A stretch of 64,000 nt of DNA from Candidatus Kuenenia stuttgartensis (GCA_945876185.1 CAMCMZ010000003.1:15454-79453), one strand, 5' to 3'. Counted from the first letter of the stretch, positions 48,714 to 61,766 are shown. Notes: generated by a model from the sequence alone, not told the origin. Numbers and translations are program-made.

Positions 48714-48891
48714 AGTCCACCTTGTACCCACACCCAACCCCAGCGCCGGCGTCCACGCCGGCCAGGACAACCGCACCAGTCGGAGGTCCACCCCATGGAT
48801 GTGGCCGCCTGACGCCAAACCAAACCCTTGACCCGCATCAAGGCCAGCGGTCGATCGCGTGACACCCTGCACGCCATCACCGGGGGCCGCC

Positions 48892-49719
48892 ATGCTACGC
48901 ACCATCATCACCATCGACGAAGCCGCCTGCGACGGTTGTGGCCAGTGCGTGGGCGGCTGCCACGAAGGCGCGATCGCCCTCGTTGACGGCAAGGCCAAGC
49001 TGGTGTCCGCAACCTACTGCGACGGCCTGGGCGCGTGCCTGGCGACCTGCCCGCGCGGGGCCATCCACACGCACCAGCGCGAGGCCGACGCCTACGATCC
49101 GCACGCCACCGCCGCCCACCTGCAACGCCTCGGCCGCCCGCTACCGCCGGAACTCGCCGCGCACGCGGTAACGCGAGTTGCCCCACCCTGGGACCGCCAG
49201 GCTCCAGCCTGGCCGCACCCGGCAAACACCACGTTGGCGCCCGCCTCAAGCCCCGCCCCCGCCGGCCATGGCGGCTGCCCCGGTGCCAGCGAACGCACCC
49301 TGGCCCCGCCGCCGTCGCCCAAGGCCCCGGCCGCATCGGTCGACCAGCCCAGCCAACTCCGTTCCTGGCCGGTCCAGCTCGCCCTGGTCAATCCCGCCGC
49401 GCCCTTCCTGCGTGGCGCGCACCTGCTGATTTGCGCCGACTGCGTGCCGTTCGCCGTGCCAGGCTTCCACCGCGACCACCTCGCCGGCAAGATCGCGCTG
49501 ATCGGTTGCCCCAAGCTCGACAACCTGCCGGCCTACACCGAAAAACTCACCGCCATCTTCGCCCAGGCGCAACCGGCCTCCGTGACCGTGATGCGGATGG
49601 AGGTCCCCTGCTGCGGCGGTCTCGCCCACGCCGTTCAGCAGGCCGCCACCAGCGTGGAACCCGCCCCGCCGGTCACCGTCCTCATCACCGCGATCAGCGG
49701 CCAGGTGATGGAGCCGTAG
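48892..49719 (+). CDS. 4Fe-4S dicluster ferredoxin-domain protein
   Basis: CDGCGQCVGGC, CDGLGACLATCP, GCPG, WPVQL, ADC, GCPKLD, MEVPCCGG. Confidence 0.9.
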   Translation: MLRTIITIDEAACDGCGQCVGGCHEGAIALVDGKAKLVSATYCDGLGACLATCPRGAIHTHQREADAYDPHATAAHLQRLGRPLPPELAAHAVTRVAPPWDRQAPAWPHPANTTLAPASSPAPAGHGGCPGASERTLAPPPSPKAPAASVDQPSQLRSWPVQLALVNPAAPFLRGAHLLICADCVPFAVPGFHRDHLAGKIALIGCPKLDNLPAYTEKLTAIFAQAQPASVTVMRMEVPCCGGLAHAVQQAATSVEPAPPVTVLITAISGQVMEP

Positions 49720-49831
49720 CAGGTGCAGGTGCGGCAGGCGATAGCCCTGGCGGCCCGGGGCGCCGCAAAAGTCGGCCTTCCTGGGAGCGCCGGCGTCTCG
49801 CCGGCTGGAAAAGCAGCATCCGAAGGATGCC

Positions 49832-50024
49832 CTGGGGATTGGCCATTCGTACGGGGTGATCAGGCGAGCCGGCCAAGGCCGACCAAAATTATCCGGCAAT
49901 TCACCATCTTTCCGGCCTTGACCGGCTCGCCTAGCGGTCAGCGGCCGGTTGCAAACCGGCGGTCCCAGACGCAAGCGTTTTTGCTGGTTTTTGTAGTTTG
50001 AAGACGCAAATGGCCAATCCCCAG
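49832..50024 (+). mobile_element. 193-bp MITE, family A, copy 2
   Basis: Same 16-bp TIR; 8 substitutions vs copy 1; 17-bp flanking repeat AGCATC(C/T)GAAGGATGCC at 49815-49831 and 50025-50041. Confidence 0.9.
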
Positions 50025-50225
50025 AGCATCTGAAGGATGCCACCAACCGACTTATGAGATGGCCTGCCTGGCGGCCCACGCCGGCCGCTGCAGGCGCCAC
50101 GGGGCGTTGGCAGACCCGTGCGGAATGCCCTCGATTGAGCGGATTTCCTCAAGATAGCGGCCCAGCGCCCAGCGAACCAGCAGGCCAGCGGAATGAGAGT
50201 TGCACCGAGTCGCAGGCCTCCACGA

Positions 50226-50253: not shown

Positions 50254-50351
50254 ACGGCCACTCTCTGTCTTCTTTCCCCGGCACCCACCGGCCTTCTTTT
50301 ATGACATACGACGCACAGCCTGTATTAGTCCTAGGGCAAGGCCCGGTCCGG

Positions 50352-51107
50352 ATGGTTTCGGACACAAGGCAGCGTCGTAGCCGCCGTGCATCCGGGTTCA
50401 CGTTGTTGGAAGTGATGATCGCGGTGGCGATCCTGACCATAACCACGGGTGCGGTCATGGCTGGGTTTGCCGGTCTGGTCGGCGTCCGGCGCGAATCCAA
50501 CGACGTCAATACGATCAATGCCCTGCTCAGGGACCTCGACAACCGTATTCAGGGCGCCTCGCCGGAAGACATTCTCAGCGCAAACACCTGGCTGCGGCCC
50601 CGGCCGGCGCTCGCCGCCGACAACACCATCGCCACGATTGACAGCAACAATGGTCCGCTTGACGACAGTTCCCTGATCGCGCTGGGTCTGCTTGACGGTG
50701 AAGGGTCGGGGATCAACGGCTTGGCCGTGTATATCGAGTATTATCGCGGCCTGCGGACGATATCCGACCCGGTCTCGGGCCGGGAATCGTTGGATACCCT
50801 CCCACCCTATGCCCAGATGTTGTCCAATCCCGCCTTCGACTGGCAGCGGACCCTTCGGACACCGCACAATGCCTTAACGACAACGGCCTTTGCCAAACCA
50901 CCGTCCCCGACGGCCTATGATTTCCTGATTCCGAGCCTTAATCCAGTCCCGGCCGTCTACCCGGCGCTCAACAGCCTCAATCGGGACTCGGATTGGCACC
51001 TGGTCATCCGCCTCATCGTCGTGTGGAAGAGCCAAAGCGGACAGGCCATCAACGGGTTTCGCTCCAAAGAACTGATCACCGGTCGTCGCATTCCACGGAT
51101 CGACTAA
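50352..51107 (+). CDS. Type IV prepilin-like minor pilin/pseudopilin (PilV-like position)
   Basis: Class III signal RRSRRASG/FTLLEVMIAVAIL with E5. Confidence 0.85.
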   Translation: MVSDTRQRRSRRASGFTLLEVMIAVAILTITTGAVMAGFAGLVGVRRESNDVNTINALLRDLDNRIQGASPEDILSANTWLRPRPALAADNTIATIDSNNGPLDDSSLIALGLLDGEGSGINGLAVYIEYYRGLRTISDPVSGRESLDTLPPYAQMLSNPAFDWQRTLRTPHNALTTTAFAKPPSPTAYDFLIPSLNPVPAVYPALNSLNRDSDWHLVIRLIVVWKSQSGQAINGFRSKELITGRRIPRID

Positions 51108-51111
51108 TCCT

Positions 51112-52593
51112 ATGGGCACTCACGGCATCAGAATGCATGGCGCGTACACCCTGGTCGAGGTGACCATCGCCGTGCTCATCCTCGCTGTGGCCGCCGCCAT
51201 GTCGGTTGAAGCATCGCTCGCGTCGGCGCGCCACGCGGCCCTGGCCTCGGCCCAGGACACCATCACGGATGATGGCCATGAGATCCTACGCACCATCTGC
51301 GAGGATCTCGGGGCCAGCGCCTGGCAGTTTGCCGATGACCAGACGACCTATTCGGTGGAAGAAGGCTGGCGACGGGATGGAAGCAGTGATGGCGGTATCC
51401 TACCCTCAGGAGTGAACTTTGCGACGGACCGTGGACTGCGCTACTACCCTTTCGTGCTCCAGCAGACCAGCGACGGAACCCTCAACACGGAAGGATTGCC
51501 CCAGGGCAGCAGCCCCAAGGTTCCCATGACCTGGTTCAAGCGTGCTGGGGACCAACTGACTACACCCACATGGCCGGACGTAGGGCAACCGTTCGCGCGC
51601 GGCATCCATTGGCCATTGAACCTTCCGGGCAAGCCGACCGACCGCGACACCGTTTTCAGCAACCCCACCCGGAATGCCGCGCAGTATAAACTGTATATCG
51701 ATAGCTTCTTCGCCCGATCCCAGGAACTCGTGTTCCTCAAAACCACTGCCGGCGGGTGGCCCCGGCCCATCCAGATTGGCACACAATGCGTCTTGCAGCG
51801 GGGGGAACCAGCGACCGGCATCCGGGGTTCCGTCGCCGACTGGCAGGCGGCCCAGGCCCAGATCGGTACCGCGAATGACACCCTGGCCTGGCGGCAGGGG
51901 CTCGGAGTCTCCTATGCTTCCCCTTGGCGGCGCCTGACGGCGAATGCCACCGCTTTCGATTATGTCGATCCCACCCTGCCGGCACCATGGGATCCCCTGG
52001 TTTCAGCCCCGCAATTGTATGGGCGGGAACTGTCAGCCGCGCGGGTCAACGCCAATGCTTCGGGCAATCTCAACGTGCAACTCAACTGGGAAACCATGCG
52101 GGACACCTCGCTGGCACCCCAGAATGGCCCCCTGCCGCAGGGGTTCGCCAACAATCTGCGCGAATACACCTATGCCGTGATCCCGTGTCCTGGCAACGTC
52201 GGCCAATTGGGCCGTCTGGTGCGGGCCTACCGCGACGATCCCGGGTTCATCCCATCGGCGGATCAGTACATCGCCAGTGGTACCGTCCTCGTTACCACCA
52301 CGGCCGGCGCCGCTTCCGTGCCGACGGTGACGACCTCGAAAACCGTATATGTCATCATCGATCGGGTGCTGTCGGATTCGGTTGTGCGGGTGGTCTTCGA
52401 CACCGCGCGAACCGATCCCAACCTGCGCATCAACCAGGTGCGCATCCGGTTGTACCTGGCCAGGCGGGTCGAAGGTTCCGACATGGGGGTCTTCCGTCGG
52501 CTTGAATGCCTGGCCACCCTCAATTCCCGTAGCAGCAATCCCGACATGACCAATGACCTCTCTGCGCTGGGTTCGGTCCCGTTCCCATACTGA
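51112..52593 (+). CDS. Type IV prepilin-like minor pilin (PilW/GspJ-like position)
   Basis: MHGA/YTLVEVTIAVLIL hydrophobic N-terminal helix with E5. Confidence 0.8.
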   Translation: MGTHGIRMHGAYTLVEVTIAVLILAVAAAMSVEASLASARHAALASAQDTITDDGHEILRTICEDLGASAWQFADDQTTYSVEEGWRRDGSSDGGILPSGVNFATDRGLRYYPFVLQQTSDGTLNTEGLPQGSSPKVPMTWFKRAGDQLTTPTWPDVGQPFARGIHWPLNLPGKPTDRDTVFSNPTRNAAQYKLYIDSFFARSQELVFLKTTAGGWPRPIQIGTQCVLQRGEPATGIRGSVADWQAAQAQIGTANDTLAWRQGLGVSYASPWRRLTANATAFDYVDPTLPAPWDPLVSAPQLYGRELSAARVNANASGNLNVQLNWETMRDTSLAPQNGPLPQGFANNLREYTYAVIPCPGNVGQLGRLVRAYRDDPGFIPSADQYIASGTVLVTTTAGAASVPTVTTSKTVYVIIDRVLSDSVVRVVFDTARTDPNLRINQVRIRLYLARRVEGSDMGVFRRLECLATLNSRSSNPDMTNDLSALGSVPFPY

Positions 52594-52622
52594 CCGCGTC
52601 TACCGTTCTTTTGGAGTCCACC

Positions 52623-55600
52623 ATGCAACTCACCGCCCGTTCCAACCCAAAACCGACGCCGCGCAGCGGCAACGCCATCGTCCTTAGCTTGGCCCTGGTC
52701 GTCGTGATCGGTTCGCTCCTCGCGACCACCACCACCAGTTCCGTGGCGACTTTGCAGTGGGCGGTCCGTGAGTCGGATCGGCAGACGGCTCTCTCAGCGG
52801 TCAACATGGTCATATCGCGCCGGGAACTGAGGGTGGTCCAGTTGGGCCAGACCGGCGACCCCGAATCATTTGTCGATTATCAGGACAATTTCGGTGTCGA
52901 CCAGGTCGGATCCTGCACCGTGCAGTGGAAGGTGAGCCCAGTCCACACCCCCCCAAAAAATGCGCTTGGCCAGGTGCAGGACTACATCGCCAATCCACCG
53001 CCCCAGGAACCCACGGGAACCGTCGACTCGCACCAGTTGCCCAATGATACGGTCTACCTCTATGAAGTTGCGGCCAAAGCCACGATCACCAATGGCGATC
53101 AGATTCTCGCTTCTGCCCAGGGCGTGCGTTACACGTCGGTGCTCAAGACGCCGTTGTTCCAATACGTGATCTTCTACGCCCAACGCGGGCCCAAGGGCGA
53201 TCTCGAACTCAGCCATGGCGATAATTTGAATATCAAGGGCAGCGTTCACACCAATGGGGCCTTGTACATTGGCGCGCAAACCAAGGTCAATGACTGGGCG
53301 ACCCTGGCCGGACCTGGCTCGTATACCCGTATTGGTCCGGCGACCCGGGGTAGCGATACCAATGTGCCGGTGAAGGTGATCGGGGTGGATGGCATTTTCT
53401 GCCTGTCGAAACCCCTGTTATATGGAATGATGAATAAATTGCCGCTGGGGTCCCCCGCGTTGCAGCGGGTGGGGGCGGAAACGCTGACGAACTACTATGA
53501 CACCAGCACTGCGGACTCTTATCCCCGAGATGCGGAGGCCATTCAGGCGTTGTACCGAATGACCAGCGATCCGGCCACGCTCGCCGCCCATACGGGCCCG
53601 CTGATCACGACCAACCTGGGCGCAGTGGGTTCGACCAATGCCGTTGATTACATCAATCCCTACCGGGTACGGAACTACACCACCGGGTCATTGGCAACCA
53701 GGAACAGCGGTTTTAGCGGATCCCAGACGGATCAATTGACGGCGCGCACCATCAATCGGGTGAGTCCGGGTGGCCTAGGCATCCCTATCCTTGGCGCGGA
53801 CATCGGCACCACCCAGGCCAATGATTCCCGCGATGGTGCCACGGCCAATACCCAAGGGCGATGGCGGCAGTTGTCCACCGGCCCAGGGACCAGCAATCCG
53901 GCGGGATTCAATGGCCATGTGCGGACTTCGCTCACCGGAGGGTCGGTCAAGCAGTTGCCCACCAACCTGATCGGGGTCGAAGGCGCCGCCCTGCGCCCGC
54001 TGGAACCGCAGGCACTGCGGTATGTCACCAGCAACCCGCTCGTGGGCGGTGGGTTGCCGTACGACAGTGACCCGACCACGGATGACCATGAATGGGCGAC
54101 CCCCCTGTTCCGGACGGATGCGATTGGCACCACCACGACCGATCCTGGCGCATTCTGGGATACCAATGGGGTCCTGCTTGAAGAGCCCGGTAAATACCTG
54201 CGTCACGCCCTCGGTGATGGCCGGTTTCTCGCCCGGCGTCCGGAAACCCATGCAAAACCGGGAACTGGGTGGGATGTATACAGCTTCGCCTCGGGTGCCC
54301 CGGCTGCCATCACGGCCAGTGCGGCACCACTGGGCAAAGTGGGCCTGATCATCCGGGAACGCCCGGTTCCCAACACCGACATCTGGCCGGGCACGGTCAG
54401 CGTCCCACCATTACCACGGTCGGATCCGAATTCCTTGCCCTTCGCCTACGGCAAGGCCTTCCGGCCAGGTCGGCCAAAGATCACCCCAATCGATGTTGAC
54501 CATGGCACTTGGGCCGGTGCTGATTATGGGGCGTGGTTTGGGGCGTTTGGCTGGCAGGTGGGATCAACCAGGGCCAAAATCAACGAAACGACAGGGGGGC
54601 CGGCGCAGCCGGACCGATCCTTCGAACTGACCGTAGATGGAACTCTGACCGTCAGATCCAAGGCGTCTCCTGGGGTGTATTTCCCCAAGGGCACGGGAAC
54701 GAACCCAAGTTCGACGGAAATTAGGAGCGGTGTCATGGATCGTGAACGCCTGGGCAATACCGACCGCTATACCTATTTCTACAATGACAGTTGGCGCTTT
54801 TTCCATCTCAAGCAGCCGAACGCAGCCGTTCCCCAGCCAGGGGGGGTCACTTGGCGCACCTTCGACGATGGTTTCCCGAAAAGCCAGGCGGGGGCGGGGC
54901 GCTATTGGGGTAACAATATCAACAACCAATACTTACAGAGTTGGGGAAACACCCGCAATGGGGCCGAAAATGTTTATGACTGCGTCACCGGATCCGCTTT
55001 GCTCACCGGCAAACCGTTTTCGGTCGGTTCCAGCGGAACCGCGCCGACGAACTTGCCCCCGCACGTAAATTCACCGCTAGGGGGCGAATACTTCAGCTAC
55101 CGCCTGGAGGGCTTCCTGGTCCCGGAATTCAGCGAAAGCTATTTCATCGGTGCCGTCCATGACGATGGCGTCAAGATCTGGTTTGACGGCAAGCTGCTGT
55201 CAGAGACCAACCGATGGAGTTTCACGGGTCAAGGTGAGGCCTATGGTGGTTACACCGAGCGGCTGACCGCCGGCCAAGCCTATCCGATCGTGGTGGAATA
55301 TTTTTTCCAGGGCGGTAACGGTAGAGGCCTCACGACCAAATGGTCGAGCGCAACCCGAACCATTGAGGAGATTCCCATCGCCAGCTCCAACACCGGGGTT
55401 GGTTGGCACCAGACCGATCCCAATTATGGTTTCAAGAAACCAGGTGGAACGACGAGCGCTCCTACCGGTTTCAAGTCCATCCAAGGCCGCATCAAAGTCC
55501 CATCCTTATCACTGTTTCCCAGTGGGCAGCGGTTGAATGATCGATCCTTAGCAGACAACACCCTTCACAAGGTTGGGCTCATGTTGCGTGACGGGGCAGC

Positions 55601-58600
55601 TGGTCTTTCCCCCTGGCTCAGCGGTCGCGATGCCTATGTGATGATCGGTTATAACCGAATACGCGGAGTGTTCGTGCAGCAGCGTCGGGTAGCGGCGGAA
55701 ACGTGGTACAGCGAGGCCAGGGTGCCGAAGTGGTTCGTCGGGGCAGGGGCAAGCTTCAAAGAAGAAGATCAAAGCGGAAACATCAGGTTACCAACCAGCG
55801 ATAGTGCTGGGGAAGTCGATTCGTACCTCAAGCCTCTGGTCACCACTTCGGGCCAGACCGAGCCCTACAGCTTCAACAATAAGCGTTTCGAATATTCTAA
55901 TTATGTGTTGGCGGCTACGATGGAAAAATATCGTGAAGTCCTTCCTGTCCCCACCCCAACGGTTACCCAAACACCTGTCGACGTCGCCAATAATTCCCTG
56001 CGCTGCGAACCGCAGGAAATAATAGAGGAAGGTAGGAGGCATTCCGTGACTGTCCGGCGTACAGGCGGAGTGATCTCTCGTACCGTGAAACCCAGGAAAA
56101 CGATCTACCCCTACTGGAATCAGACGATCTACCTGCGTCTGAACAGCGCCTTGCCACCGTTACAGTCTGGCGATGATGGTAAGACGTTGACGCTGTATAA
56201 CCTCATTTCACCCTTTGGACAGAGGTGGTCTGGAAAGGTGTCCGTAACCCCCCCCACCGAAATCAAAATCGTAGAAGGGGACCCGAATTTCGATACCTAT
56301 TCCACAGATGGTTCAGATATCACGAGCCCCATCGCGACCCGTGCGGATCGGACCTACGAGAACAACGTGGTCTTCGTCAGAGACGGTCAGATCAATGGCA
56401 AGACAGCGGAATACATCAAAAATTCAATGAATTCCAATTCGGCCGGTGGTTGCATAACCTGGATCCTGCCGTCATCCGGCAATGCATGGCCGGACTCAAA
56501 TGGATTTCTCAAGGCACCGCGCCCAACAATTACGCAGGCCCATTATGATGCAGTCACTGATCCGACGATCCCGCCTGGCACCGTGGGCCGCTATCGCATA
56601 AACATCCCGAACGGAAATTACTATTTCGCCATCGACCGGGGTTGGAGCAACCGTGACGTCTACCAGGATATTAACAGTTGGGTGAGTCGTACGGGAGTGT
56701 GGAACGCAACGCCTGTGCCACAGGTTGTACCCTGGACCACCGCATGGAATCTGCCTGGGGTCGAGCGGGTGAAGACCTATAGCCATCGGCCGGATCTCTG
56801 GGGATCAACCAACGTCGCCTCTGTCAGCGGGGATGTTTTCAATACCTACCAGGCCCTAAATGCGGGCGCGGGCTTGGTTCCGATCATTCCGGACGGCGTG
56901 ACCAATCCTAGCGCTCGAACCCCATGGTATCTCACCGACGACATCCCGACGCCACCGTCCACCGCTTCATCGCCACCCTGGTCGGATGAGCAGAAACTGA
57001 TCTGGGATCCCAACCTGGAATCCGTGTGGTTGCGCATCGAACAGGATCCGGATCAACCCAAAATGGTCCGATTCGCCTGGTCGCCGAAGTCGACGCAGCC
57101 GCTGGATTCCGAATGGCAGTATGTTACCAAAGACTCCGGCACGACTTCGGTGCAGGGCAGAGACAACGCCAATGCGAGTCCTGACATTCTGCGGATCGAT
57201 CTGTCCCCGTCTGACACGCGCAGTATTTGGGGTGGCCAAACGGACCCGACGGCGCCCAATGATCAGATCCTGGCCGGGCCGTGCTTCCAGAACGCGGGAT
57301 TCACCTCCACCGGCAACGGGACCTCAGCCGCTTTCACCGCGACGATGAGCGACCTGAAAGTCGTGGTGGCAGGCGACTCCGCCGATGTCAATGGAGATGG
57401 CGTCATCGACACGAGCGACTGGTTCTCGCCCACGACGGGCAGCTCTGCGTCTCCAGAATCGGCCTACCTTGCCAGCCAATACCAGGTACTTTGGGGCCCT
57501 TACGACATCACCGAGGATTTCTTCACCTGGCAAGAGACCCAGGGCAATGCCGGGCGCACCGCCTGGGAGGACTGGATGTACAGTCCGCGCGAGTTCTGGA
57601 GCCAGTCCCGATACTGGTACAATGCAGCCGTCAACGATACGTTCACCGATGCAAGGCATGTTGACAAGGAAAAGGATCCTGGCGGCCACAGCAACCTCGC
57701 CAATCGCCTGGCCCTGGCCCAGACCACCCTGCTCACCCTGAATATGGGCCGTTACGACGCCATCAACCAGACCGGTATCCAGGGCTACCTGCGCAACCGC
57801 CGTTTGGTTGATGCGGTGCAGAATCGCCCCTTCACCGATTCGCAGAATAGGAACCCCCCAGCGGTGTATCTCGGGGACCAGGGCCTGCTTCTCAAGGATT
57901 CATTCAATGGCCTGATCTATGCAGCGCGCACCAACCGCTATCCCTGGAACCCAACGATTCCCAACGGTAGCACATATGCCGGAATGAATCTGGCTGCCGC
58001 CTGGGATCTTGGTGCCAACCTGTTCCCGAATACGACCCCAAATCTGTCCGGCACGAACCCCCTGGCGGATGTCGTCATCGCCAACCGTGCGAATCTCAAT
58101 GGATTGACCGCATCGCGCTCGGCCAATCGCATCGACCCGGCCACGAGAATTGTGTACCACCGGCTCCAGTCCTATACGGATCTGCTGGGTGCCCCTGCGA
58201 CCAAACCCCAGGATTTCCACCATGGGGTCCGGGTGGTCAATGCCTCCGACATCCACTGGGGTTTTCCCAATCCCACAGGTGCAACCGCAGGGACATTTGG
58301 CGAGAGCAAGACGTCAATCGTCACCCCAAACCAACTCTACCTGTGCGGCGACGTCAATACCATTGACTATCCACTGACGACGCGCAATGCGCAGACCCCG
58401 GTTCGCCATACCGCCCCGTTGGCGGTGATGGGCGATGTCATCCACCTGCTGTCCAACGCGTTTTCTCCGTACAATCCGGCCAACCCGGTCAGGAGTTATG
58501 CCATCCCTTCCATCTACAAGGACAAGTCGATCACCCCCCCCCCCGCCCCCGACCCCGACCGTGCCCCCGACCCCGCCCCCGATCCAGGCCTCGATCACCG

Positions 58601-59121
58601 GGTCCGGCATCCTGGTCAATCCCACCCAGTACCCGGCCACGACGACCACCTACAACACCTGCATCCTGACCCACAATCAACCCACCACCCGGGCCACCGT
58701 TCTGGAAGGTCAGGGGGCGGCGTTCGTCGACACCATGCAGTTCATGGAGAACTGGAATGGTGCCAGCATGTATTTCAAGGGAAGTCTGGTGGTCATGGAT
58801 ACGCGTCGCTACACCCAGGCCTTTCTGCTCGATTTGGAAAAGCGGTATGGCCGCACCGTCTTCGGCACCACGGTTGCGAATGGTAGTCGGGTAGGGGGCA
58901 GACTCGAAGCCGCCCCGTTGACCGGGACAGAGGTGGCCGGGTGGCAAACCATCTACACGGGTCTGGGCCTGAACCAACAATGGGATGGATTTATTCCCCA
59001 GGCCTATGGCGTACCTTCCCGCATCTATTCCTTCAACAACGACCTTCTGACCCCGGAAGGCACCCCACCGTTCACGCCCTTCGGTGTGACCACCAGCGGC
59101 ATCGGCGGCTGGCTGCGTTGA
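52623..59121 (+). CDS. Giant PilX/GspK-like tip adhesin (~2165 aa if intact) with a PA14 domain; frameshifted at C11 tract 58534-58544
   Basis: RSG/NAIVLSLALVV N-terminus lacking E5; PA14 (FSYRLEG.L.P...HDDG..IWFDG...L.AG..YPIVVEY); DVNGDGVIDTSD loop; the conserved-looking C-terminus (MENW..FKGSLV..P.R.YSF..D....TPP.TP) lies in the +1 frame (ORF 58435-59121). Confidence 0.8.
58534..58544 (+). repeat. C11 homopolymer at the frameshift point
   Basis: ATCA-C11-GCC; C10 or C13 would join the two reading frames. Confidence 0.9.
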
Positions 59122-59122
59122 G

Positions 59123-59227
59123 CCTAAAAATCGCAATTGCACCCCAGCTGCGGCGTTGGTCGTCAGTCATTGGGCGCTGCCCAACTCCTTCCTCCCGCCT
59201 TGCATCTGGGGCGCACTTGCGATTTTT
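59123..59227 (+). repeat. 102-bp structured repeat, family B
   Basis: TGA-G-CCT-AAAAATCGCAATTGC... directly after the stop (59119-59121) of the +1-frame adhesin C-terminus. Confidence 0.92.
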
Positions 59228-59339
59228 AATGGAAATTGTTGGTGCGGCGGTTTCGACGATGGTGGAAAAGGTGAGGGCGGGAAATTCAAGTCGCCGTCGG
59301 TGTGCTTGAGTCCGATCCGCGCAGTCTAGCGTCGCGCGC

Positions 59340-61234: not shown

Positions 61235-61635
61235 GGAGCGTCGATGTCCACATCGACGAAGGACTTGGACATCCACGGCGATGTGGACATCGCCGCTCCG
61301 GTGGCGCCTCGTAGGAGCGTCGATGTCCACATCGACGAATGACTTGGACACCACGGCGATGTGGACATCGCCGCTCCTTTGGCGAGTGGCGTCTCGAATG
61401 GAGCGTCGATGTCCACATCGACGAAGGACTTGGACACCACGGCGATGTGGACATCGCCGCTCCTTTGGCGAGTGGCGTCTCGTAGGAGCGTCGATGTCCA
61501 CATCGACGAATGGCTTGGACACCACGGCGATGTGGACATCGCCGCTCCTTTGGCGAGTGGCGTTTCGAATGGAGCGTCGATGTCCACATCGACGAATGGT
61601 TTGAACACCGACGGCGATGTGGACATCGCCGCTCC
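61235..61635. repeat. BIME-like tandem array of 5 inverted REP doublets
   Basis: Units start at 61235, 61314, 61400, 61485 and 61571; each is GGAGCGTCGATGTCCACATCGACG, a 16-17-nt linker, then CGGCGATGTGGACATCGCCGCTCC. Confidence 0.9.
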
Positions 61636-61766
61636 TGACGGCCGCCACTCGTCCAAACGGTGAGACGCCAAGGTTCCCGGGAAAGCAGGACACCGCCACG
61701 CAAGCGCCGCCTGCAGATCGGGCTTGCTACTGGTGGCAGGGGGGCGGGAGCGTAGATCCAGGTCTC

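Follow-up and report, generated by a model that had tools for sequence, protein, structure and literature searches.

What would a bacterium do with a pilin-like protein of some two thousand residues, and why would the gene for it be found out of frame? Both questions are raised by positions 50,352-59,121 of a 64,000-nt stretch of Candidatus Kuenenia stuttgartensis (GCA_945876185.1, CAMCMZ010000003.1:15454-79453), which we call the window and in whose coordinates all positions are given. Three linked genes, g1, g2 and g3, form a cassette there: two minor pilin genes followed by the gene for a giant protein with a pilin-like head. The reading we prefer, and hold with moderate confidence, has three parts. 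The cassette would encode the tip complex of a type IV pilus, its present version would be an allele brought in by recombination, and the length of a poly-C run would switch the full-length giant protein on and off.

Three linked genes and a giant cap-type protein

The genes lie on the plus strand, as do all features described within them, with 4 nt between g1 and g2 and 17-29 nt between g2 and g3, for which TTG at 52611 and ATG at 52623 are both candidate start codons. The first gene (50352..51107) encodes a prepilin-type minor pilin of 251 aa. Its N-terminus, MVSDTRQRRSRRASG followed across the cleavage site by FTLLEVMIAVAIL (context RRASG/FTLLE, the slash marking cleavage), is a canonical prepilin signal with Glu5. 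The protein scores 30.6 bits against Pfam N_methyl (PF07963; cut-off 21.2) and 22.3 bits against TIGR02532 (cut-off 16.3). It also has weak GspH/GspI/PilV matches, and its orthologue in locus L012 of another assembly matches the PilV model TIGR02523 at 1.4e-6, under the cut-off. The second gene (51112..52593) encodes a minor pilin of 493 aa whose N-terminus, ...MHGA/YTLVEVTIAVLIL, we read as HGA/YTLVE, again with Glu5. This glutamate is kept in all orthologues read (L002 and L004) and in a paralogue described below (IQG/HTLIE, ATA/FTLME and QSG/MTLVE). The N_methyl score of g2 is borderline, at 17.5 bits by hmmscan and 22.2 bits, above the cut-off, in a six-frame search, and 40 homologues of similar size were found, some of which JGI names PulG or PulJ. 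Thus, g1 clearly and g2 marginally belong to the prepilin-type proteins with a class III signal. We infer a PilV/GspI-like role for g1 and, from its size and position, a PilW/GspJ-like role for g2.

The third gene (52623..59121) encodes a giant PilX-type cap protein, which has 2165 aa when a poly-C run near its end is ten bases long and is frame-broken as assembled. It begins ...PRSG/NAIVLSLALVVVIGSLL, also read RSG/NAIVLSLALVVVIG, and Glu5 is absent. The motif R-x-G/N-A-L-V and the hydrophobic stretch are conserved throughout the g3 family. These motifs bear out the initial annotation, which had described three tightly linked genes, two for Glu5 prepilins and one PilX/GspK-like gene lacking Glu5. 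We modelled g3 with AlphaFold2 as residues 1-1150 and residues 1001-2165. In the first model, the N-terminal module (52623..53150), which carries the class-III-like signal without Glu5, consists of a 59-residue helix (residues 18-76) and four strands (90-174), with a predicted local distance difference test score (pLDDT) mostly between 70 and 90. The predicted layout of this head is that of a type IV pilin. Beyond it come runs of strands of 3-4 residues that are solenoid-like in look, and short-strand runs of good confidence recur near the C-terminus. A giant body on a PilX-type N-terminus with a predicted pilin-like head agrees with the earlier proposal of an adhesin-like body fused to a PilX-type cap pilin.

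The body of g3 contains a PA14 domain of the carbohydrate-binding type (55083..55373; aa 821-917), the sole Pfam domain in the protein (PF07691; 1.9e-11, 44.5 bits, threshold 24 bits). A profile search of the Protein Data Bank (PDB) with the g3 family returned PA14 chains only, that of RsgI3 at 4.7e-42. Foldseek with the model of residues 1-1150 returned RsgI PA14 chains, the PA14 domain of the Marinomonas primoryensis protein MpAFP, and Epa/Flo adhesins, with E-values down to 4.8e-7 and probability 1.0. The DDG motif is retained in the PA14 domain of the window's g3 and lost in the paralogue and in many relatives; we take this motif to correspond to the calcium- and sugar-binding Asp pair of PA14 lectins. 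By its sequence, then, g3 may bind glycans. Some homologues (P0020 and P0023) carry CBM5/12 inserts, of the chitin/cellulose-binding kind, instead, at residues ~254-290, just behind the pilin-like head, and a short relative, P0142, has PF17829 on record. The initial annotation had called g3 a multi-lectin protein. We found a single PA14 domain by Pfam, PDB profile and Foldseek searches, and that description falls. The roughly 1150 remaining residues gave no fold match: Foldseek of residues 1001-2165 against the PDB and the viral models of BFVD returned nothing below E = 0.005, and the conserved C-terminal module (57261..59121; aa 1547-2165) lies in this part. A PDB profile search with the N-terminal 300 residues also gave no match.

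The g3 family is rare and belongs to the Planctomycetota. Its C-terminal module has 117 related cluster representatives among 1.84 billion proteins and nearly always ends proteins of 1700-2600 aa. When g3 is aligned with its relatives, the N-terminal ~620-1050 residues and the final ~620 are conserved, around a variable middle. The 36 relatives from a first search are unnamed or called "hypothetical", "PA14 domain-containing" or, once, "PilX". Across the host's own taxonomic family, the gene is present in 7 of 17 genera, in up to ~3 copies per genome; 12 genomes sampled elsewhere in the phylum, from other families, lack it, and a peptide-pattern search of GTDB genomes for relatives yielded none that was confirmed. 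A second tier of relatives consists of Planctomycetota proteins of 1050-1370 aa, which share the first ~270 and last ~300 residues of g3 (BLASTP 1e-13 to 1e-24 per end).

Through these shorter proteins g3 is linked to the HpsA family. Five of the eight scanned match the HpsA model NF038301 at 3.6e-14 to 4e-4, all far under its 400-bit cut-off, four of them at model positions ~1323-1447 of 1503 and one at ~981-1009. The same C-terminal part of the model is hit by one g3-type protein at E = 0.07. In g3 itself, the YVIFYA...SHG motif, at 8.8 bits, is the sole candidate in a six-frame search of the whole genome, and the protein has no profile match to HpsA/PilX-EPS (NF038301, IPR049774). Nor did g3 match PilX_N (PF14341; cut-off 25.5 bits) at E <= 10, or GspK (NF037980). 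Homologues cover the PilX_N model from 1 to 50, its full span, with 11-17 bits, starting from the G/NALV motif, which is a resemblance rather than membership, and one homologue reaches 11.4 bits (E = 0.17) with GspK. We therefore file g3 as a remotely linked relative of HpsA/PilX-EPS and not as a member, a placement drawn from sequence comparison.

What is known of that family gives the link its meaning. HpsA belongs to the PilX-EPS subfamily of cyanobacterial cap pilins, in which a beta-solenoid splits the pilin fold, separating its last strand from the penultimate one, and bears lineage-specific domains at the far end (PMC13759059, October 2026). The FimT, PilV, PilW and PilX genes sit together, and the authors propose that PilX-EPS caps the pilus and serves as an adhesin in place of PilY1 (PMC13759059). 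For g3, a helix, four strands and short-strand runs are predicted, and conserved ends surround a variable middle. The window cassette fits the PilX-EPS picture in gene order, in the Glu5 pattern and in its conserved-ends layout, and by analogy the invariant C-terminal tail of g3 (...EGTPPFTPFGV...) may return to the pilin sheet. If the tail does so, losing the frame 190 residues short of the end would have serious consequences.

Versions of the cassette at a fixed site

The cassette could be an inherited component of its chromosomal site or a version that arrived there later. In a sister-species genome (G001; locus L002, GCA_964654285.1), a cassette occupies the same site, between a Fer4 (ferredoxin-like) gene upstream and an M48 peptidase gene downstream. 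Between the two species, the flanking proteins are 79% and 91% identical, whereas g1, g2 and g3 are 52%, 49% and 52% identical, values that an invariant core cassette would not give. At the nucleotide level, identity is 0.90 over the conserved leader and first ~27 codons of g1 (50284..50433), which form the left edge of the divergent block. It drops inside g1 at ~50434, to 0.68 and then to 0.55-0.6 downstream, and is back to 0.82 over the final 50 g3 codons, with the right edge of the block at ~58973.

The low GC content of the cassette, put at about 60% against about 70% in the flanks by the initial annotation, was confirmed (0.59-0.63 against 0.70-0.74 in the flanking genes), and the dip is present in the sister locus also. 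We considered the low GC as a pure amino-acid effect and rejected this, because a paralogous cassette with the same amino-acid bias has a normal GC content at third codon positions (GC3). That paralogue, which we call cassette 2, came from counting such cassettes in this 3.8-Mb assembly (G000; completeness 82%), as had been proposed. It lies on contig C46 (19297-26831; L001 5130-13132), is intact, has the permuted order g2-like, g3-like (1961 aa), g1-like, and is 28-33% identical to the window cassette. GC3 is 0.70-0.75 in the window cassette (cassette 1), 0.84-0.87 in its flanks and 0.82-0.85 in cassette 2. Between the two species, cassette 2 is 83-90% identical, like its own flanks. At four-fold sites, the fraction identical to the sister species is 0.34-0.42 for g2 and g3 and 0.60 for g1; the flanks reach 0.73-0.75, and cassette 2 reaches 0.61-0.74.

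Fast diversifying selection in place, driven for example by phages or grazers, would also lower identity to the sister, and two observations agree with it: the two versions are still each other's closest database relatives (51% identity, against 35-37% for the next matches), and a third sample shows a patch of changes in g2 that includes 15 non-synonymous as well as 13 synonymous codon differences. Selection on the protein does not by itself account for four-fold sites near saturation in g2 and g3, for a GC3 some 14 points under the flanks in both species, or for the sharp edges of the block, and we consider it an unlikely explanation. The same three features, the near-saturated synonymous sites, the sharp edges and the GC3 below that of both flanks and cassette 2, suggest instead that the cassette 1 alleles are much older than the species split and were placed in a fixed site. 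The pattern fits recombinational replacement or long-maintained allele classes, and not fast protein evolution alone.

The third sample just mentioned (ERZ19568958, L016) carries a cassette variant that is 98.4% identical to that of the window. Its 31 differences are clustered in g2: 18 fall within 360 nt (51472-51829), and none falls in the first 309 nt of g3. The cluster looks like a small recombination patch. A third genome of the same genus (G002) has a single cassette of a further type at a different locus. We considered this genome as an example of an empty site and set it aside; its M48 homologue is just 43-44% identical, and the neighborhood is not syntenic with the Fer4-M48 locus. At that locus, the Fer4 protein (48859-49719) is highly conserved with L002 save for a replaced Pro/Ala-rich linker of ~50 residues in its middle.

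Repeat elements stand on both sides of the cassette, as the initial annotation had noticed. Element A (49825..50030), which resembles a miniature inverted-repeat transposable element (MITE), lies between the Fer4 gene and g1, outside the cassette proper, and element B (59119..59263), a palindromic hairpin, follows directly after the g3 stop codon. Near-full copies of A number 40 on 30 contigs, with a mean identity of 88%; those of B number 96 on 51 contigs, and B forms a long hairpin (-63.6 kcal/mol, z = -3.0). Both are short, non-coding and multi-copy, with inverted ends or a hairpin, and are MITE-like in this sense. They occur commonly between genes throughout the genome, and the sister locus has neither; its Fer4-g1 spacer measures 203 nt, that of the window 632 nt. 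We therefore rejected A and B as borders of a mobile cassette. The swappable module of the initial annotation survives as the replacement of versions at a fixed locus, but not as a unit bracketed by repeat elements. A 52-nt repeat unit just upstream of element A (49780-49831) also has many copies on other contigs.

The C11 run and the reading frame of g3

As assembled, g3 leaves its frame at a run of eleven C (58534..58544) and then passes through ~113 codons in the wrong frame to a stop at 58886. Beyond the run, the +1 frame is coherent to 59121, so the end first given for the cassette marks where coding sequence does reach, but only by way of a frame change. We removed one C in silico for analysis, which gives 2169 residues from the TTG start. 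The read-through product is aligned by 35 of 35 homologues up to their own last residues, and in the C46 paralogue both parts of the giant gene lie in a single frame. The run heads an imperfect (CCCCCG)8 array (58534-58581) that encodes a Pro/Thr-rich insert found in no other homologue, a lineage-specific feature. The out-of-frame form loses the last ~190 residues, and with them 19 of the 55 columns that are invariant within residues 1001-2165.

An exact-sequence look-up revealed a second member of the same 90% cluster, P0043, with an intact 2165 aa. It comes from two further assemblies of this strain, one in the European Nucleotide Archive (ENA; ERZ27280257, L007) and the other a Logan contig from run ERR3719150 (L008); both have ten C. 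The broken form, of 2087 aa, is found on a Logan contig of ERR5863101 (L009), which like the window has eleven. L008 differs from the window by a single base, in the C run, over 9179 nt, with no mismatches; L007 differs by the C-run indel and four substitutions over 18.9 kb. Hence a simple repeat inside the open reading frame (ORF) is polymorphic in length among otherwise identical genomes, and ten C restore the 2165-aa frame, as expected of a contingency locus. From these sequence comparisons, the run is probably a slipped-strand on/off switch of g3. Two of the four L007 substitutions (61324 and 61329) fall in 61301-61636, where an 86-nt palindromic unit is present in 3.9 tandem copies between the M48 peptidase gene and the next gene.

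The alternative is that C11 is not a biological switch at all but a homopolymer miscall in assembly, possibly an error specific to one sequencing run, or a single inactivating mutation fixed in the population, which would make g3 a young pseudogene. We regard this as less probable than a switch and as a serious competitor. The C10/C11 difference is known from assemblies; just two tract lengths are seen, each in two assemblies that possibly derive from the same two data sets, and a gapped DNA pattern search in JGI metagenomes and GTDB genomes found no further tract-length variants. In most phase-variable genes the repeat lies near the 5' end; here the tract is at 91% of gene length, and a truncated product would keep both the pilin head and PA14. 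These points weigh against switching. Against a miscall or a fixed mutation, two different assemblers agree within each data set, and over 18.9 kb the near-identical strains show no indel but this one. Homopolymers of at least 10 bases are almost purged from the 3.8-Mb genome, with 2 observed and roughly 80 expected under a simple composition model, and the Pro-rich, C-rich insert is a lineage-specific gain within a variable loop. The other long homopolymer is a run of 13 G (contig C58:17480), at or just past a gene end and followed by a CACAAAG-rich repeat.

Pilus machinery, the proposed tip complex and known systems

If a pilus carries the products of the cassette, which machine would assemble it? 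The initial annotation had found no assembly ATPase, platform or secretin in the window, and we agree: all T2SSE, T2SSF, secretin and prepilin peptidase matches lie on other contigs. Their presence there also disposes of the possibility that the genome lacks type IV pilus or type II secretion machinery or a prepilin peptidase. The T2SSE ATPase family gave eight matches, three in PilB/GspE-sized open frames of ~590 aa and five in shorter frames of 372-483 aa. Two proteins, each in its own open frame, contain T2SSF platform domains; secretins number five and N_methyl ORFs 13, and a single prepilin peptidase is encoded. The order g1-g2-g3 recurs in seven loci of other assemblies (L002, L004-L006, L012, L013 and L014). 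In two of these, from distant relatives (L012 and L014), the next gene after the cassette encodes a PilT/PilU ATPase, scoring 436 and 442 bits with TIGR01420 (cut-off 319). Because this retraction ATPase follows the cassette there, we think a retractile pilus of type IVa more likely than type II secretion.

A type II secretion-like pseudopilus, or an hps-type filament for exopolysaccharide (EPS) secretion, would make g3 a protein that exports or organizes polysaccharide rather than a surface adhesin. The weak GspH/GspI matches of g1, the PulG and PulJ names of g2 homologues, and a genome with several PilB/GspE-sized ATPases and five secretins would suit it, as would the remote link to HpsA, which is required for hormogonium polysaccharide secretion (PMC13759059). 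Yet no glycosyltransferase or polysaccharide-export gene stands beside the cassette in any locus read, and a 230-kDa tip with a lectin domain would be hard to place on a periplasmic pseudopilus. The PilT/PilU neighbor at two distant loci argues in the same direction, since we know of no retraction ATPase in type II secretion systems. We judge a secretion filament improbable.

For the type IV pilus, we propose the following model. The products of g1, as the PilV-like subunit, g2, as the PilW-like subunit, and g3 would form its tip (priming) complex, assembled by machinery encoded elsewhere in the genome. As the terminal cap, g3 would present a PilX-type pilin head without Glu5, and because Glu5 is missing nothing could be added above it. 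Its body would form a stalk of roughly 230 kDa with one PA14 lectin-type domain and, at the end, the strongly conserved C-terminal module, and at the pilus tip the complex would act as an adhesin in place of a separate PilY1. Consistent with the latter, which the initial annotation had also suggested, PilY1 (PF05567) has no match in g3 or in the genome; this is weak evidence, as the genome is 82% complete and control genomes are silent too. Of the two cassettes in the genome, that of the window would be the variable one, its present version recombined into the fixed chromosomal site by crossovers in the conserved 5' end of g1 and the conserved 3' end of g3. The poly-C length would then switch the full protein, in frame and on with ten C, out of frame and off with eleven.

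Several observations weigh against the tip assignment. Neither cassette of this genome adjoins pilus machinery, and the window cassette lacks a FimU/GspH-type adapter pilin. The g3 protein is below threshold or unmatched for the PilX_N, GspK and HpsA models. The confidence of the AlphaFold2 models is moderate (mean pLDDT 62), and the Foldseek top 50 for residues 1-1150 are PA14 only; the pilin head was not matched on its own in that search because PA14 matches filled the list.

More broadly, the locus would be a contingency locus on the pilus tip of a free-living planctomycete, with a recombination-swapped, poly-C-switched cap pilin beside a stable paralogue. We advance this tentatively and think it somewhat doubtful as a whole. 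If true, a population could change the binding targets of its pili, or evade phages that settle on the tip, with the shared machine untouched. Phase variation of tip adhesins would then extend from host-associated pathogens to environmental bacteria of the Planctomycetes-Verrucomicrobia-Chlamydiae (PVC) group, and a Planctomycetota branch of the HpsA/PilX-EPS superfamily would be defined, taking the idea of an enlarged PilX that replaces PilY1 beyond cyanobacteria. Planctomycetes attach to algae and polysaccharide-rich particles, and their pilus tip proteins are essentially unannotated; the locus is a concrete candidate for a planctomycete adhesive tip. Comparing the conserved with the exchanged and switchable cassette within one genome could show diversified surface recognition or evasion of pilus-using phages, and the PA14 part is small enough for expression and glycan-array testing.

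How does the cassette compare with systems already described? The initial annotation had pointed to the Verru_Chthon cassette proteins A-D (TIGR02596-02600), which we take to be small prepilin-type cassettes with one long protein in PVC bacteria. This kinship was rejected: none of these models matched g1, g2, g3 as assembled, intact g3, the paralogue or the orthologue at E <= 1. Of the profile searches it had proposed, N_methyl was thus found in g1 and g2, while neither PilX_N nor the TIGR02596-02600 models were matched by g3.

One close likeness is to PilX-EPS/HpsA, as in Synechocystis pilA9-12 and the Nostoc punctiforme hps locus (PMC13759059). In both, the operon encodes minor pilins with Glu5 and then a very large cap pilin that lacks it; the expanded body of this pilin bears lineage-specific grafted domains, and it is a proposed replacement of PilY1 as cap and adhesin. 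The HpsA model is also matched, in its C-terminal part, by shorter Planctomycetota relatives of g3. In contrast, g3 comes from another phylum, is larger, with 2165 aa (PilA12 has 799 aa, HpsA about 1500 aa), carries PA14, and does not itself match the HpsA model (8.8 bits at best). Its cassette has no FimT-type gene and no hps glycosyltransferases nearby, and neither allele replacement nor a poly-C run is described for the cyanobacterial genes.

Modular type IV pilins such as PilB and PilC of Streptococcus sanguinis also display a functional module, grafted on a pilin, at the tip, and a survey of them lists pilin-plus-PA14 architectures, including a Planctomycetes example (PMC8179133, PMC9934059). 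Those proteins are canonical N_methyl pilins with Glu5, the largest surveyed having 860 residues, whereas g3 is of the cap type and lacks Glu5; of its roughly 2000 additional residues, most are unmatched by any known domain. With the GspK-GspI-GspJ and PilX-PilV-PilW tips, the cassette shares two Glu5 minor pilins and a large terminal subunit without Glu5, and ComZ of Thermus thermophilus carries a beta-solenoid on a pilin fold (PMC8179133, PMC13759059). Unlike these likenesses in layout, sequence and fold give no match between g3 and GspK, PilX or ComZ, and size differs about five- to ten-fold.

For the switch, the parallel is Neisseria pilC (PMC5953494), a gene for a pilus-tip-associated adhesin with a G/C run of at least 9 bases inside the ORF, whose length changes shift the frame. 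PilC is a protein of the PilY1 family rather than a pilin, it belongs to a pathogen that faces immune selection, and switching is proven for pilC, while we infer it here from two assemblies. Modular pilins (PMC8179133), PilX-EPS (PMC13759059) and pilC phase variation (PMC5953494) are thus known already. This locus adds a new phylum, a greater size, a stable cassette paired with a variable one and, probably, the switch.

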